This document shows, one piece after another, positions 11,488 to 63,931 of a stretch of DNA of 64,000 bases. The stretch comes from an uncultured Candidatus Saccharibacteria bacterium (GTDB lineage: Bacteria > Patescibacteriota > Minisyncoccia > Phycocordibacterales > UBA9973): NCBI GenBank assembly GCA_964646765.1, contig CAZYIA010000003.1, forward strand, positions 2,815 to 66,814, in the 5' to 3' direction. The translations under genes and the position numbers were made by a program. The notes below the pieces were generated by a model, which did not search any database, was not told where the DNA came from, and saw only the letters and a program-made list of their open reading frames with translations. The first letter of the stretch is position 1. Each line of letters begins with the position of its first letter.

Positions 11488-12087
11488 TTATTTTTCAGCT
11501 GGTAACTGACAGCCAGTTTCTTCAGACAAAAGAGCGAGACTGGTTTCTCCTGAAAGGCGAGAAGTTGCTGGATCGAAGGTGTATGTTTTTTCATCTCCTT
11601 CTCCAGTGGTAGTTGGTGTACTTGTTGTCATTACGCGAACAGCTTCTCCGCTATTGAGTGTAAATACCCACTGCGTAAATAGTTTTGATTCGTTACCCCC
11701 TTCTCCTGGTTTTGAAACAATCGGATTAGTTTTTGTGTGAAGCACGATTGGTTTTGTAAAGGTCCATGTTGGGTATCCCTCGATTTTATTATCAGTACAT
11801 ACTTGCGTTTGTGATGCTCCATCTGGGTTAGAACATTCAGTGTATAGATCGATAGCTTCAAGTTTTTGGCGTGACATACCAAACTCACGTTCCTGGGCTT
11901 GGCAGTGTGGGCACCAGAATGCTCCGTAAAACTTTGCACCTTGGTCTTTCAAACACTGAGCAAAACCATCGTACACCCCTTTTTTATTTGATGAGTAAAT
12001 GGCAAAGGCAATAGCTCCGGCGATAAGAATAATGACAACTGCGATTGTAACTTTTTTTGATGTATCCATAGATAGAAAGTATAGCAA
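11488..12087 (-). CDS. Membrane-anchored thioredoxin-fold thiol-disulfide oxidoreductase (DsbA/BdbD-like) with a C-terminal extension
   Basis: N-terminal TM anchor followed by FYGAFWCPHCQAQ (CPHC active site). It sits immediately upstream (minus strand) of the DsbB-like gene. Confidence 0.65.
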   Translation of the reverse strand: MLYFLSMDTSKKVTIAVVIILIAGAIAFAIYSSNKKGVYDGFAQCLKDQGAKFYGAFWCPHCQAQEREFGMSRQKLEAIDLYTECSNPDGASQTQVCTDNKIEGYPTWTFTKPIVLHTKTNPIVSKPGEGGNESKLFTQWVFTLNSGEAVRVMTTSTPTTTGEGDEKTYTFDPATSRLSGETSLALLSEETGCQLPAEK

Positions 12088-12157
12088 AAAATGAGGCTAT
12101 AGGGATCGGTCACAAATCACTAAGTTTTTACCACGCAACGCGTGTTAAAACAAAGTG

Positions 12158-12250
12158 TTTGCGACCCCGCCTCGCCTGTCACTAGCGCGACATGGCTGCG
12201 GCCTTCGATCCCTGCTCGCATGTGAAGCAGTTCACATGCTTGAGCGGATA
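12158..12250 (-). repeat. tRNA-linked conserved element, copy A (downstream of tRNA-Lys): scaffold block + antisense T-arm segment + AAGCAGT-loop hairpin
   Basis: About 70% identical to copy B (47141..47245, opposite genomic orientation, same orientation relative to its tRNA), including a 16/16 block gcgaccccgcctcgcc (12161-12176). ttcgatccctgct (12204-12216) is the reverse orientation of the tRNA-Lys T-loop/T-stem. The hairpin catgtgaagcagttcacatg lies at 12219-12238. Confidence 0.6.
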
Positions 12251-12272
12251 AAAATCCGCTTCGTGATTTTTG

Positions 12273-12345
12273 TCCGCTCAGCAGGGATCGAACCTGCGAC
12301 CGTCTCCTTAAAAGGGAGCTGCTCTACCAACTGAGCTATGAGCGG
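12273..12345 (-). tRNA. tRNA-Lys (anticodon TTT)
   Basis: Minus-strand cloverleaf CCGCTCA-TA-GCTC-AGTTGGTA-GAGC-A-GCTCC-CTTTTAA-GGAGA-CGGTC-GCAGG-TTCGATC-CCTGC-TGAGCGG-A. Anticodon loop CTTTTAA. CCA is not encoded. Confidence 0.85.
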
Positions 12346-17572: not shown

Positions 17573-17647
17573 GGTCCCGTCGTTCAATGGATAGGACGCA
17601 AGATTGCGGATCTTGCAATGCAGGTTCGATTCCTGCCGGGATCACCA
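17573..17647 (+). tRNA. tRNA-Arg (anticodon GCG as read; CCA encoded)
   Basis: Cloverleaf GGTCCCG-TC-GTTC-AATGGATA-GGAC-G-CAAGA-TTGCGGA-TCTTG-CAAT-GCAGG-TTCGATT-CCTGC-CGGGATC-A-CCA. The anticodon loop TTGCGGA gives GCG. The overlapping track ORF 17525..17935 is spurious over this region. Confidence 0.7.
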
Positions 17648-17683: not shown

Positions 17684-17935
17684 GTGTGTGATGACTACAG
17701 CTATGTTTCGCGAGCACGCGAAACCGCGAGGGGCGGGCTGCGAAAATTTCGAGCGACTGGCGAGAAATTATTTGTAGCCACACTAACTGATACGGGATCA
17801 CCTGGTCATGAATCAAGTAAATTAGGACCAAAGACAAAAGCAGCCCTGATTAAGTTCCAAAAGGCTCACGGTATTCTTCCAGCGACCGGAAGATTTGGGC
17901 CAAGAACAAGAGCTTACTTCAATCAGCATCCATAG
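17684..17935 (+). CDS. Possible small ORF/gene remnant with a peptidoglycan-binding-domain-like C-terminus (GTG start; no signal peptide)
   Basis: The 3' portion of track ORF 17525..17935 downstream of the tRNA encodes ..LGPKTKAALIKFQKAHGILPATGRFGPRTRAYFN, a PG_binding_1-type motif also present at the C-terminus of CDS 42822..45614. There is no ATG; a GTG lies at about 17684. Confidence 0.25.
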   Translation: MCDDYSYVSRARETARGGLRKFRATGEKLFVATLTDTGSPGHESSKLGPKTKAALIKFQKAHGILPATGRFGPRTRAYFNQHP

Positions 17936-47015: not shown

Positions 47016-47100
47016 GGAGGCGTGGGTGAGTGGTTTAAACCAACGGTCTTGAAAACCGTCGTGTCGAAAGGCACCGTGAGTTCGAATCTCACCGCCTCCG
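47016..47100 (+). tRNA. tRNA-Ser (anticodon TGA)
   Basis: GGAGGCG-TG-GGT-GAGTGGTTTAA-ACC-A-ACGGT-CTTGAAA-ACCGT-[long variable arm CGTGTCGAAAGGCACC]-GTGAG-TTCGAAT-CTCAC-CGCCTCC-G. CCA is not encoded. Confidence 0.85.
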
Positions 47101-47110
47101 CAAGTACAAA

Positions 47111-47140
47111 AAAGAGCCCGAAAGGGCCTTTTTTGTTTGA
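47111..47140 (+). terminator. Weak rho-independent terminator after tRNA-Ser
   Basis: gccc-gaaa-gggc stem plus ttttttg. Confidence 0.4.
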
Positions 47141-47245
47141 CGCAGGCGAGCACGCAGACTGCTTTACGTGCGGGTGAGATTCGAAAGCCGCAGCGTGTCG
47201 CCTTGGCGACGGCGAGGCGGGGTCGCGAACACTTGGTAGTTTTGG
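47141..47245 (+). repeat. tRNA-linked conserved element, copy B (downstream of tRNA-Ser)
   Basis: About 70% identity to the reverse complement of 12158..12250, including the 16/16 block ggcgaggcggggtcgc (47211-47226). ggtgagattcgaa (47173-47185) is the reverse complement of the tRNA-Ser T-loop/T-stem (ttcgaatctcacc). A hairpin with an aaagcagt loop precedes it. Confidence 0.6.
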
Positions 47246-47364
47246 GAGTGAGACGAGCAAAAATACTTAGTGATTCGTGACCGAATCTCCCGTTCTTAAG
47301 TTTTAGTCGCGGGCGAATCGGCCGTCTCCGCAGAAATAGATAATTCTGATATTATTTTAATTGC

Positions 47365-61729: not shown

Positions 61730-62050
61730 ATGGATAAACTCAAACACATTTTTGCGCATCATAAACGAACACCGAAGTTTTCGAAGCCGTTTGAGCATTC
61801 TCCGGTACGCATTTGGAAAATTTTTCTCATTGCAACAACACTACTCTCGATTGGAGCTGTGATTGCATCTTGGTTTTTCTTCCGGACTCTTACAACCGAT
61901 GCGGTGTTTGATTCAGACGTACAAGGATCTTCGGGTGAACTTATTCAACACAGTAAATTAGAAACAGTGCTTTCCCACTATAAAGATAAGACAGAAAAGT
62001 TTAAACAATACTCAGAAGAGAAACCGGTGATTAAAGATCCGAGTATATAG
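61730..62050 (+). CDS. Small hypothetical membrane protein (pilus-cluster associated)
   Basis: 106 aa, one TM. Immediately follows the PilO-like gene. Confidence 0.4.
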   Translation: MDKLKHIFAHHKRTPKFSKPFEHSPVRIWKIFLIATTLLSIGAVIASWFFFRTLTTDAVFDSDVQGSSGELIQHSKLETVLSHYKDKTEKFKQYSEEKPVIKDPSI

Positions 62051-62123
62051 TATTCGCTTGGCCACGAATAATTTCTCGCCGTCGCTCAAAATTTTCTCGG
62101 CCCCGGCTCACGGTTTTTCACCA

Positions 62124-62732
62124 CTAGGTGGAGGAAATCTGAACAGTGTTTATTTTTGTAAGTACCCGCCTTCGTATCAGGCAGATAACTATTAGCACCG
62201 TATTCGCAGCTGAAATTGCAATAAGGTAACTCAGTGTTAGAAAGTTATATTCTTTTAAGGCAGCAATCGCAAAACAGTTTCCAACAACAAATAAGATGAA
62301 TGTTAAGACCGTCTCACTCCATGGTTCTTGAAATGCTTTTCGGTAGCTTGGTATATACCCCAAGACATCAATAATACAGATCAGAAGAATTGAAAGGAAA
62401 GGATTTTTAAGTTGCCACCAAATTATTATTGCAGAAAGAACAGCTATAAGTATGACTGTATCGCCGAGAGTGATATTTCTTGTGCCATATTTGAAAGACA
62501 AGAGAAAGATAAGGCACATCATTACTGTCCCTATAATTAACTCAAGTCCACCAATTCCGCCTCCACCATATAACAATCCGGCGAGTGCAGTTCCTTGCGT
62601 CAGAATCCATATGAACCAGGTATAAGCGTGCGGTTGAGTCTTTTTTAAGAAGATGTCTCTTATATAGGGGAGAAACGCCGTTGTACCAACAGCGACAGAG
62701 ATGAAGGCGAATATGAGTTTAATAGGCAACAA
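62124..62732 (-). CDS. Hypothetical polytopic membrane protein
   Basis: Six TM helices. TTG start in the track. Confidence 0.45.
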   Translation of the reverse strand: MLPIKLIFAFISVAVGTTAFLPYIRDIFLKKTQPHAYTWFIWILTQGTALAGLLYGGGGIGGLELIIGTVMMCLIFLLSFKYGTRNITLGDTVILIAVLSAIIIWWQLKNPFLSILLICIIDVLGYIPSYRKAFQEPWSETVLTFILFVVGNCFAIAALKEYNFLTLSYLIAISAANTVLIVICLIRRRVLTKINTVQISST

Positions 62733-62766
62733 TTTGAGTATATCAAAATTATAGTTTCTAATTTTG

Positions 62767-62838
62767 TGCCCCCGCGAGGAATCGAACCTCGAATAGCGGC
62801 TTAGAAGTCCGCAGTTATATCCATTTAACTACAGGGGC
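62767..62838 (-). tRNA. tRNA-Arg (anticodon TCT)
   Basis: Minus-strand GCCCCTG-TA-GTTA-AATGGATA-TAAC-T-GCGGA-CTTCTAA-GCCGC-TATT-CGAGG-TTCGATT-CCTCG-CGGGGGC-A. Confidence 0.75.
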
Positions 62839-62929
62839 AAGTGGGCATATCTATTGTACTTCAAAAAACAGTTCGGGACTCGCCGACTACATCGGCAGGT
62901 ACTTTTCTCATTTGCTTCTCAAATATAGA

Positions 62930-62975
62930 AAAGTCTTTCAAGTTCCTCACGCGAGCAAAGCAGTTTGCTCGCTCC
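62930..62975 (-). repeat. tRNA-linked element, diverged copy C (downstream of tRNA-Val): antisense T-arm segment + AAGCAGT-loop hairpin
   Basis: ttcaagttcctcac (62937-62950) matches the tRNA-Val T-loop/T-stem (ttcaagtccctcac) 13/14 in inverted orientation. It is followed by the hairpin gcgagcaaagcagtttgctcgc (62951-62972). Confidence 0.5.
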
Positions 62976-62981
62976 CGCGCA

Positions 62982-63007
62982 AAGACGCCCTTGAGGGGCG
63001 TCTTTTT
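62982..63007. terminator. Hairpin terminator abutting the tRNA-Val 3' end
   Basis: aagacgccc-ttgag-gggcgtctt plus ttttt. Confidence 0.6.
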
Positions 63008-63008
63008 G

Positions 63009-63081
63009 TGCGCGGTGAGGGACTTGAACCCCCGACCTTTCCGGTGTAAACGGATTGCTCTACCAACTGAGCTAACCGCGC
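63009..63081 (-). tRNA. tRNA-Val (anticodon TAC)
   Basis: Minus-strand GCGCGGT-TA-GCTC-AGTTGGTA-GAGC-A-ATCCG-TTTACAC-CGGAA-AGGTC-GGGGG-TTCAAGT-CCCTC-ACCGCGC-A. Confidence 0.8.
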
Positions 63082-63145
63082 AGGTAGAACACAGTCTACA
63101 CAATTTATCCTTTTTTTCAATGGGTATTGCTGCTATAGTGCCCGT

Positions 63146-63931
63146 ATGCAAAAAAGTGCCTATCTCGCCACTGCTATCTCGCTTGCCAAGGAGGCAGGTG
63201 AGATTATGCGTAAAAACTTTACGCTTAATATGCAGAAAGAATGGAAAGCTGATCATACTGCGGTTACCGAAACTGATCTTGCCATTAACGAGCTTGTCCT
63301 TAAGAAGCTCAAAGAAAAATATCCTGATCATAGTATTCTCTCAGAAGAAGGAGATGATTTTTCACACGAAAGCGAATATGTTTGGGTATGTGATCCGCTT
63401 GATGGTACGCACAATTTCTCTCATGGAGTTCCTACATCAACATTTGCTCTCGCGCTAACCCACCAGGGAACGCCGATACTAGGCGTGATCTATGATCCTT
63501 TTCTTGATCGAATGTTTTATGCTGAACAAGGGAAGGGAGCCTACTTAAATGGTTCACCAATTCATGTTTCGGAAAGCCCTCTACTTAAAAGAACGGTTAT
63601 TGGTTTAGGAAAATGGGATGGTGTACGCAATTTGTTTCCAGTCGCCGAAGAACTTCGTAATCATGGAGTTAGATTAGTAACCGGGCTTTCCATACATTAC
63701 ATGAGCGCGCTTGTTGCTGCTGGAGAATTTGCTGCTACTTTTTTTAGCAGTACAGCTCCGCATGATACTGCGGCAGCAAAAATTCTTGTTGAAGAGGCTG
63801 GGGGAAAAGTTACTAACCTTTTTGGTGGTTCGAGCCGTTATGATCGTGACGTCGAAGGTCAGCTGACATCAAATGGAATTTTACATGAAGAGCTGCTTGC
63901 CATTATGGACCGTGTTTCTCCTAAAAAATAA
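63146..63931 (+). CDS. Inositol monophosphatase family protein (SuhB-like)
   Basis: WVCDPLDGTHNFSHGVP and the metal-binding motifs are present. 261 aa. Confidence 0.8.
   Translation: MQKSAYLATAISLAKEAGEIMRKNFTLNMQKEWKADHTAVTETDLAINELVLKKLKEKYPDHSILSEEGDDFSHESEYVWVCDPLDGTHNFSHGVPTSTFALALTHQGTPILGVIYDPFLDRMFYAEQGKGAYLNGSPIHVSESPLLKRTVIGLGKWDGVRNLFPVAEELRNHGVRLVTGLSIHYMSALVAAGEFAATFFSSTAPHDTAAAKILVEEAGGKVTNLFGGSSRYDRDVEGQLTSNGILHEELLAIMDRVSPKK

Follow-up and report, generated by a model that had tools for sequence, protein, structure and literature searches.

Small protein-less elements with tRNA-matched arms, probably integrated into tRNA genes of Patescibacteria and Elusimicrobiota

Integrative elements that reside in tRNA genes have reportedly been divided, by Williams in 2002, into classes according to their sublocation within the gene. 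The bridge (seek) RNAs of IS110/IS1111 elements are guides for both DNA strands, read as adjacent half-sites through internal loops, with a DEDD gene lying beside them; IS110 insertion leaves no long repeat. In the tigRNAs of TIGR-Tas systems, tandem spacers set between box C/D motifs pair with both DNA strands, again at adjacent half-sites (PMC12045711). Here we analyse a feature behind the tRNA-Val(TAC) gene of an uncultured Candidatus Saccharibacteria bacterium, in a stretch of 64,000 nucleotides (assembly GCA_964646765.1, contig CAZYIA010000003.1, positions 2,815 to 66,814) referred to below as the window. We think it probable that this feature is an intact copy of a family of protein-less, non-autonomous elements, about 130-250 nt long, which integrate into tRNA genes of Patescibacteria and Elusimicrobiota. 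Full-text literature searches, including searches with the core sequence, brought up no paper on such a family, the only sequence match being a coincidental one to the P2 cos site, and the family is apparently undescribed.

ARAGORN and Rfam find five tRNA genes in the window, for Lys(TTT), Arg(GCG), Ser(TGA), Arg(TCT) and Val(TAC). The last, at 63008-63081 on the minus strand, scores 68.3 bits with the Rfam tRNA model. A first-pass annotation, made from the sequence alone, had reported an inverted T-arm copy and a hairpin 3' of tRNA-Val and had taken them for a third instance of a pattern seen behind tRNA-Lys and tRNA-Ser. The sequence proves to be exactly as described, far above chance, and the phenomenon is indeed the same in all three places. 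The 14-mer GTGAGGAACTTGAA at 62937-62950 is the reverse complement of tRNA-Val positions 54-66 with a single mismatch (13/14). Next to it, at 62951-62972, lies the hairpin gcgagcaaagcagtttgctcgc, which reads GCGAGCAAACUGCUUUGCUCGC on the tRNA strand and has a 9-bp stem and a CUGC apex; compared with the other two copies, its loop is kept and its stem changed by compensation.

T-arms are conserved and hairpins are common after tRNAs, so that a chance resemblance, or a decayed remnant, had to be weighed first. The background of non-adjacent T-arms that the first-pass annotation had called for was therefore run. A 12-mer antisense to the cognate T-loop and 3' T-stem, with at most one mismatch, is found within 260 nt downstream of 55 of the 184 tRNAs tested (30%), while upstream regions of the same length yield 0/180 and non-cognate T-arms match 16 of 905 downstream regions (1.8%). 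The 184 tRNAs comprise those of the window and of the fetched loci, a set enriched for carriers, the element itself having been used to fetch the loci; this enrichment does not affect how the set compares with the upstream and non-cognate controls. Within the window the 12-mer shows no mismatch at tRNA-Lys and tRNA-Ser and one at tRNA-Val. It is absent behind tRNA-Arg(TCT) (62766-62838, minus strand), which had been put forward as a negative control. What can be said for chance is the 1.8% of non-cognate matches and the result, described below, that the scaffold of the other copies is not found behind tRNA-Val. Against it stand the recurrence of the exact 22-nt hairpin in the same context in at least 120 metagenome contigs, the empty upstream control, the presence of antisense arms on both sides of the hairpin, one matching the acceptor and the other the T-arm, and the score of an independent structural model (below). 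With these background controls, the hairpin recurrence and the model score, chance is already refuted and its probability is negligible.

The complete, non-coding Val element comprises about 145 bases at 62862-63007 on the minus strand, the hairpin and inverted T-arm copy forming its front half; it extends well past the limits first given (62925-63081), as far as 62862, and includes two more hairpins and a short T-loop/T-stem copy. Its target, termed the 'A' copy, is the segment 54-73 of tRNA-Val (63009-63028, minus strand, as are all parts that follow). The gene is followed by a terminator-like trailer hairpin with a short U run, AAAGACGCCC-CUCAA-GGGCGUCUUU (62981-63005), which forms the apex of a long fold-back joining the 3' third of the tRNA with the element; terminator prediction does not call it on its strand. 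The anti-acceptor arm B2, TGCGCGG (62975-62981), is antisense to tRNA-Val 67-73, that is the acceptor 3' strand and discriminator, at 7/7 positions. A dinucleotide GA separates B2 from the conserved hairpin, which occupies the spot where the tRNA body would leave the acceptor/T-arm helix. Then come the anti-T-arm B1, or X' (the 14-mer above, GUGAGGAACUUGAA on this strand), a GAAAG junction, the P2 hairpin ACUUUUCU...AGAAAAGU (62901-62934), supported by covariation, an ACCU, and the P3 mini-hairpin GCCGA-UGUAG-UCGGC (62882-62896) with a conserved KGUAR loop. The segment C, or X, GAGUCCC (62875-62881), pairs with B1 and so closes a three-way junction. Its AGUCCC is a direct copy of tRNA-Val 58-63, 6 nt of a repeat of which the remainder is lost. 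A U/T run after the closing helix (62862-62870) lies 24 nt ahead of tRNA-Arg(TCT).

This scaffold is not that of the Lys and Ser copies, which align with each other over about 155 nt and define class 1. The GC-rich block of those two copies had been reported missing behind tRNA-Val, and that observation holds: neither the class-1 model R1, with filters off, nor a motif search for the class-1 signature gives a match there. The suggestion of an older, decayed copy does not hold, since the Val copy is an intact member of another, smaller scaffold class, class 3. A covariance model, R2, built from 12 relatives with the window copy left out, scores 62867-62953 on the minus strand (87 nt) at 78.6 bits with an E-value of 1.9e-19, clear members scoring 50-97 bits. 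The class-3 plan is X'-GAAAR-P2-ACC-P3(KGUAR loop)-X followed by the direct T-loop copy, with P2 in the relatives reading RCUUUUC...GAAAAGY; 12 of 13 helix pairs covary, and 96% of cells are paired compared with 41-57% when slid. The Val copy is thus a complete miniature three-way junction on the same plan as class 1. The alternative suggestion, a minimal functional core of hairpin and anti-T-arm, was half right: this module is common to the scaffold classes, yet the Val copy goes beyond it, with a scaffold of its own, an anti-acceptor arm and a 3' T-arm repeat. Folded alone the element has a predicted energy of -41.3 kcal/mol (z -3.7); together with the 3' third of the tRNA this becomes -76.9 kcal/mol (z -7.6), and the predicted structure is a long fold-back with the hairpin as a branch.

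The class-1 element behind tRNA-Lys(TTT) (gene 12272-12345, minus strand) occupies 12085-12272 on the same strand and scores 73.2 bits. Its parts are the trailer hairpin (12250-12272), B2 (12241-12248), the hairpin (12218-12239), B1 (12204-12216), P2 (12167-12202), P3 (12108-12166), C (12101-12108) and a T run (12085-12093). Behind tRNA-Ser(TGA) (47016-47101, plus strand) the element runs from 47102 to 47292 on the plus strand and scores 67.2 bits, with a terminator (47108-47134), hairpin (47150-47171), B1 (47173-47185), P2 (47187-47220), P3 (47221-47282) and C (47282-47292). Both fold into the hairpin and then a three-way junction (z -8.6 for Lys and -3.6 for Ser), in which the closing helix P1 is made of the anti-T-arm and a downstream T-loop-like segment, P2 is GC-rich, and the long P3 has a conserved GGCGAGGCGGGGUCGC start and GUGACC end. 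The class signature is GCCGSAGCC...GGCGAGGCGGGGUCGC...GUGACC. An alignment of 86 copies contains compensatory changes throughout P3. In a set that is independent, having been collected by the hairpin and not by the scaffold, 15 of 16 helix pairs covary, and pairing holds for 92.8% of cells compared with 35-43% after sliding the partners. At one pair, 46 sequences have G-U and 3 have G-C, a preference which indicates that the fold belongs to the tRNA-sense strand. At least four scaffold classes exist, all sharing the same flanks; further ones are marked by CAGGAAAGGGGUCGGG... (L088, L119, L156, L082 and L171, collected loci being given by L numbers) and by AGCGAGYGCGGG...GGGCCGAGAAAUUUU... (L105 and L147). 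Rfam 15, searched at gathering and relaxed thresholds with the window, two element regions and 10 loci covering four classes, returned only tRNAs.

A degenerate relative lies behind tRNA-Arg(GCG) (17573-17647, plus strand) at 17708-17802 on the plus strand, scoring 20.5 bits (E 5e-5). It consists of a scaffold-like long hairpin (17731-17779) and of CGGGATCACC (17793-17802), a direct repeat of the acceptor 3' end of tRNA-Arg(GCG) plus CC. The earlier count of three out of five window tRNAs with the pattern therefore stands for the antisense T-arm, at Lys, Ser and Val, but four of the five carry a relative. Past CGGGATCACC, within 17708-17935 on the plus strand, a short open reading frame (ORF) tail resembles, by eye, the C-terminus of a peptidoglycan-binding domain and has the look of a gene remnant next to the element.

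More than 200 copies were retrieved, beside nearly all tRNA species and transfer-messenger RNA (tmRNA). A pattern scan of one genome per species gave at least 119 stretches, about 90 of them with the element (89 loci, 92 distinct sequences), the others being chance matches in GC-rich genomes. By record title, the carriers belong to Saccharibacteria, Paceibacteria, Gracilibacteria, Peregrinibacteria, WWE3 and other Patescibacteria (candidate phyla radiation, CPR), and to Elusimicrobia. Among viral sequences of IMG/VR, the 16-mer core has one true match, at a contig edge adjoining ordinary chromosomal genes, and 58 chance matches; the 22-mer hairpin has none, and a looser hairpin pattern meets only chance matches in coding DNA. 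With no true match beyond that contig edge, the family is not phage-borne in this collection. Nor does blastn find a match in the plasmids of PLSDB or the phages of INPHARED.

The order of parts is the same in all classes: tRNA, trailer hairpin, anti-acceptor arm (B2), AACUGCUU-loop hairpin, anti-T-arm (B1), scaffold and direct repeat (C). Every element is co-oriented with a tRNA gene and directly follows its 3' end, and 74 class-1 matches have a same-strand tRNA end 65-150 nt upstream. Each tRNA-derived part matches the neighbouring tRNA specifically. The C repeat, which starts at T-loop C56, agrees with the cognate tRNA at 10 or more of 12 nt in 35 of 74 loci compared with 8 of 711 non-cognate comparisons. 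B2, the 8 nt ahead of the hairpin, is antisense to acceptor positions 66-73 with no more than one mismatch in 27/57 cognate versus 5/339 non-cognate cases, and in the same hairpin-anchored metagenome set B1, which ends at the complement of T54 directly at the scaffold, matches in 39/57 versus 30/339. The hairpin itself is not tailored in this way: a tRNA-specific stem is ruled out, as one and the same 22-mer serves at least 14 tRNA species. The trailer between tRNA and B2 is a perfect palindrome, often of about 20-30 bp per arm, so that the tRNA 3' third, trailer, anti-trailer, B2 and B1 make up one long fold-back from which the conserved hairpin branches off between positions 65 and 66.

The repeat usually extends no further than the tRNA 3' end. 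Its full length is 18-21 nt and its overall range 6-24 nt; relatives such as L135, L202, L280 and L185 keep 15-22 nt. Fresh copies have the full repeat, sometimes with an encoded CCA that is missing from the functional gene copy, and old copies, including the three in the window, retain no more of it than the few bases pairing with B1. Decay of the distal copy often involves small indels around positions 58-62. Some copies stand behind tmRNA-like 3' ends (L174, L167, L089, L201), and in one subtype the pairing is with the tRNA 3' terminus and trailer, not with the T-loop (L080, L096, L117, L132, L177).

Two further observations concern these arms. At L091 (4885-4997) and L160 (3773-3885) the 3'-terminus subtype adjoins the 5' end of an oppositely oriented tRNA; because the complement of an acceptor 5' strand resembles a tRNA 3' end, this placement suggests recognition of sequence and not of a functional tRNA end. 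A segment of about 15 nt, AAGCGTACTCGCGGT or a close variant, stands between the last scaffold hairpin and the repeat in L209, L255, L274, L193, L217 and L283. These loci are independent and have different scaffolds and tRNAs, and in them the repeat begins at T-stem position 61, not 56.

Copy number and arrangement vary in ways that point to mobility. Whole units form tandem arrays (L061, L074, L145, L168, L178, L164), and whole units are present or absent between contigs that are about 92-100% identical in their shared flanks. L213 is a mixed array in which a class-3 unit precedes class-1-like units shared with L226, which is without that class-3 unit, and each unit of L213 has its own trailer palindrome; L219 has two units and L196 one recombinant unit. 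Between L062 and L152 an 83-nt deletion has removed most of the distal repeat, leaving the state seen in the window copies. Scaffolds 98% identical are found at tRNA-Leu(GAG) in L085 and tRNA-Ser(CGA) in L122, with different arms, hairpin stems and trailers. Conversely, tRNA-Val(TAC) is followed by class 1 in L088, L096 and L156 and by class 3 in the window. Polarity is indicated by the encoded CCA: among 72 loci with a near-complete repeat, 10 have it after the distal copy only, 3 show the reverse and 5 have it after both, with a chance expectation of about 1. At Elusimicrobium tRNA-Ser(GGA), the trailer after the gene copy in L173 is that after the distal copy in L093. Breakpoints of partial units recur at two places, the hairpin loop (L143, L111, L166, L095) and the position immediately following GAAAG (L147, L195/L299, L208), and this recurrence suggests module exchange at conserved islands. 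As a separate case, L146 (about 340-560 of the extracted segment) has positions 1-53 of tRNA-Lys(CTT), then scaffold, the palindrome CGAGTCCCGGGACTCG and a second, intact tRNA-Lys(CTT), an arrangement suggestive of an insertion that failed or was rearranged, with disruption of one of the gene copies.

These features can be accommodated by the following scheme. The mobile unit would be [56-73 + trailer palindrome + B2 + hairpin + B1 + scaffold], joining the chromosome by Campbell-style recombination with segment 56-73 of the cognate tRNA gene. Insertion would push the original tRNA 3' end downstream while supplying a replacement 3' end and trailer hairpin, so that the tRNA stays functional; the newest unit would always adjoin the tRNA, and the displaced 3' end would be left to decay. 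In a single-stranded form, whether transcript or single-stranded DNA, both antisense arms could fold onto the element's own tRNA segment. The folded arms would then present a double-stranded, tRNA-shaped mimic of the target, with hairpin and scaffold as handles for an enzyme encoded elsewhere.

A different view of the same loci is that the element serves the host in cis: in read-through RNA, the arms would pair with the 3' third of the upstream tRNA, the downstream repeat would compete for them, termination, 3' processing or quality control would be regulated thereby, and the arms would co-evolve with the tRNA. Such a role would agree with the invariable position immediately 3' of a tRNA on the same strand, with an antisense arm whose complementarity to the tRNA stays perfect even at loci with a degraded distal repeat, with the alternative pairings A:B and B:C, with the location of the Val element between two co-oriented tRNAs downstream of a single promoter-like site, and with occurrence in very small genomes, where junk is scarce. 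It does not explain the patchy distribution, the same tRNA having a different scaffold class or none from genome to genome, nor the tandem and mixed arrays with gain and loss of units between near-identical contigs. A full acceptor-strand copy, sometimes with CCA, has no obvious use in cis, and it decays; moreover, near-identical scaffolds stand at unrelated tRNAs in different genomes. We regard this host-serving role as quite improbable.

Several points nevertheless weigh against mobile, tRNA-gene-integrating elements. Integration is argued solely from architecture and polymorphism; neither an excised form nor a transcript was seen, nor an empty site in a sister genome. The collection was made with exact sequence patterns, so that counts are biased towards conserved variants, and the CCA asymmetry of 10 against 3 is modest. 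Within the 4-7 kb read on either side of each copy, neither a recombinase nor a reverse transcriptase nor a nuclease came up as a candidate. In old copies B matches the tRNA perfectly, which may reflect gene conversion from arm to arm within the palindrome, not function. The weakest point is retargeting, since all three matched segments have to be exchanged at once. That it occurs is evident from near-identical scaffolds at different tRNAs, but the proposed scheme does not account for the new arms.

The neighbourhoods were also surveyed for a partner gene. Clustering of the ORFs at about 210 loci gave no recurrent protein family beyond local synteny, the syntenic neighbours being YraN at tRNA-Pro, the CCA-adding enzyme, SmpB at tmRNA, and FtsH; a few large serine recombinases are scattered near elements at variable distance. 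The YraN/UPF0102-like gene, named by eye, converges on tRNA-Pro(TGG) and abuts the element at 12 metagenome and 6 genome loci (among them L183, L185, L228, L273, L278 and L163). It is the sole nuclease-like neighbour seen more than a few times, and reads as conserved synteny. FtsH homologues of about 1088 aa, with an insertion that looks intein-like by eye, occur in L258 (6457-9724) and 9 other metagenome loci and are probably unrelated synteny.

As to the nature of the folded form, we lean, by no wide margin, towards RNA over single-stranded DNA. RNA is favoured because of the conserved G-U pair, the constant co-orientation with the tRNA and the U runs that follow the closing helix in the three window copies, and because tRNA-Val and the element are not separated by a strong terminator or promoter. 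In 62700-63160 there is a single sigma-70-like promoter match, at 63093-63120 on the minus strand, upstream of tRNA-Val. As this is the sole match, and the trailer hairpin does not score as a terminator, one transcript may run through tRNA-Val, the element and tRNA-Arg(TCT). The RNA of a fresh copy, from B2 to the end of C, could form an acceptor stem plus extended T-stem and might then be excised by RNase P and RNase Z. Some loop sequences could bear on the choice between RNA and single-stranded DNA: GAGCGAAGCGAG, GAGCGACGGCGAG and GCGAAGC-type sequences recur in P2/P3 hairpin loops at many loci (e.g. L063, L075, L182, L163) and stand in for GC-rich terminator stems in some trailers, and GCGAAGC forms an unusually stable DNA mini-hairpin.

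A further reading takes the loci as genes for guide RNAs of a trans-acting, RNA-guided enzyme (a recombinase, nuclease or tRNA-modifying enzyme); the functional product would then be the RNA, and the copies need not be mobile. B and C would read both strands of the tRNA gene, or B would read the tRNA, and the scaffold would be a protein-binding handle. A conserved scaffold with variable, target-matched flanks is the layout of a guide RNA, the fold is strand-specific with conserved G-U, and B, complementary to the sense strand, and C, identical to it, could together pair both DNA strands as TIGR RNAs do (PMC12045711). However, B and C correspond to one and the same segment and are mutually complementary, whereas TIGR RNAs read adjacent half-sites (PMC12045711); box C/D-like motifs, an array of short spacers and a linked Nop, DEDD, TnpB or IscB gene are all missing; and a static guide gene accounts neither for the arrays nor for the tRNA end being directly repeated over 18-21 nt. 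We therefore hold a non-mobile guide gene to be unlikely. Somewhat more credible, though still tentative, is an element whose insertion is itself programmed by base pairing. Either RNA or a folded single strand would guide insertion into any tRNA gene, its complementary arms of about 20 nt specifying the gene and a trans-acting enzyme, or ordinary tRNA-processing or repair enzymes, carrying out the reaction; or else the units would be DNA copies of a rod-like, tRNA-mimicking small circular replicon. In both cases they would represent a class of mobile element that is programmable, has no protein gene and occurs in the smallest bacterial genomes.

The neighbours in the window are housekeeping genes, for DsbB/thioredoxin-like, MFS, GNAT and inositol monophosphatase (IMPase) proteins and others of this kind; for one window protein, the nearest named homologues come from Kaiserbacteria, Paceibacterota and other Patescibacteria. 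At 62050-62123 on the minus strand there is a long hairpin resembling a scaffold, CGGGGCCGAGAAAAUUUU...AAAUUAUUCGUGGCC (R1 21.5 bits, E 2e-5), directly after the stop codon of an ORF at 62124-62732 on the same strand, which codes for a multi-pass membrane protein of 202 aa without a Pfam hit and starts 34 nt past tRNA-Arg(TCT). No arms matching tRNA-Arg(TCT) were found at this hairpin. In a syntenic relative, whose IMPase is 71% identical, the tRNA-holding gap measures 453 nt as against 1096 nt in the window, and for this reason the ORF and the hairpin fragment may be an insertion. An empty site was sought in relatives; beyond the one syntenic relative, the homologues found are not syntenic.

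If the elements are indeed mobile, then Patescibacteria and Elusimicrobia, including those with genomes of about 1 Mb, carry many copies of a gene-less mobile element made of a structured scaffold and some 20-30 nt of tRNA-matched sequence, re-fitted to nearly every tRNA species and to tmRNA. The site would be chosen by base pairing or homology and not by a dedicated integrase, which is what programmable insertion tools need. Most tRNA genes in these organisms would end in element-derived sequence, a matter of consequence for annotation, 3'-end processing and CCA dependence, and correlation of scaffold class with protein family would provide an entry point to the enzyme. Even as cis-acting parts of tRNA operons, they would amount to several unannotated, well-covarying RNA families.

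The element is not an IS110/IS1111 bridge RNA, having no adjacent ORF, a closing helix formed from two target-matched segments and an 18-21 nt repeat, nor a TIGR array, the architecture of which is different (PMC12045711). It does share with bridge RNAs and tigRNAs a conserved structured RNA with short variable segments, one for each DNA strand, and programmability, but its segments overlap, pair mutually, measure 8-20 nt and have no linked protein gene. IS200/IS605 elements and the omega RNAs of TnpB/IscB are rejected in the absence of an Rfam match and of such ORFs nearby, and by the presence of a long repeat. In contrast to a miniature inverted-repeat transposable element, with its constant terminal inverted repeats and short target duplication of fixed length, the inverted segments are internal and vary with the neighbouring tRNA, and the repeat, of 6-24 nt, ends at the tRNA 3' end. 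Group I introns, small ribozymes, tmRNA, retron msr, T-box and the like are excluded by the Rfam 15 search, which matched tRNAs only, and when the junctions and the CUGC loop were inspected by eye as hammerhead, kink-turn, group I P1/P10 or anticodon-loop structures, none of these fitted.

There is a resemblance to tRNA-like domains (tmRNA, viral 3' tRNA-like structures, mascRNA), in that the B2-hairpin-B1...C of a fresh copy can form an acceptor stem and extended T-stem with a discriminator at the 3' end, a predicted shape that RNase P, RNase Z and the CCA-adding enzyme could process. Differences are the lack of an Rfam tRNA or tmRNA match over the element, an insertion at the T-loop and not the anticodon position, and the absence of the acceptor 3' strand from old copies. 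Like R2 in ribosomal DNA, the element would ride on transcription of a host structural-RNA gene. Integron attC sites and the CTX-phi attP hairpin offer a further parallel. There too a single-strand fold rebuilds a target-like duplex with a variable apical part, recognition is by structure, as proposed here, and small units are arrayed beside a fixed site; a strand-specific single-strand fold with covariation, as defines attC, is found in the element. The attC core RYYYAAC/GTTRRRY is not: the junctions are GTGAC|C and GGTT|C, and the GTTCRA of the T-loop departs from GTTRRRY. Here, moreover, no cassette ORF and no link to IntI or Xer were seen, and the mimic is matched base for base to the tRNA of each copy. 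attC and CTX-phi sites are DNA folds, whereas that of the element may be RNA or DNA, with RNA mildly preferred.

The integrative elements of tRNA and tmRNA genes (prophages, genomic islands and CIME-type derivatives that lack an integrase) have the most in common with it. They likewise have a direct repeat from the T-loop to the tRNA end, with one subtype that repeats from the 3' terminus; the gene is restored by the proximal copy, and the displaced one decays; tmRNA serves as a target too; and repeated insertion builds arrays, as here. What distinguishes the present units is their size of 130-250 nt with no ORF, integrase or cargo and no recurrent recombinase beside them, together with a hairpin-split antisense copy of the target and a covarying scaffold that serves nearly all tRNA species. 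On the defining features tested, the element is a member of none of the systems compared; by analogy, it comes nearest to a tRNA-gene integrative element stripped down to the attachment site and combined with the folded-site logic of attC and CTX-phi.

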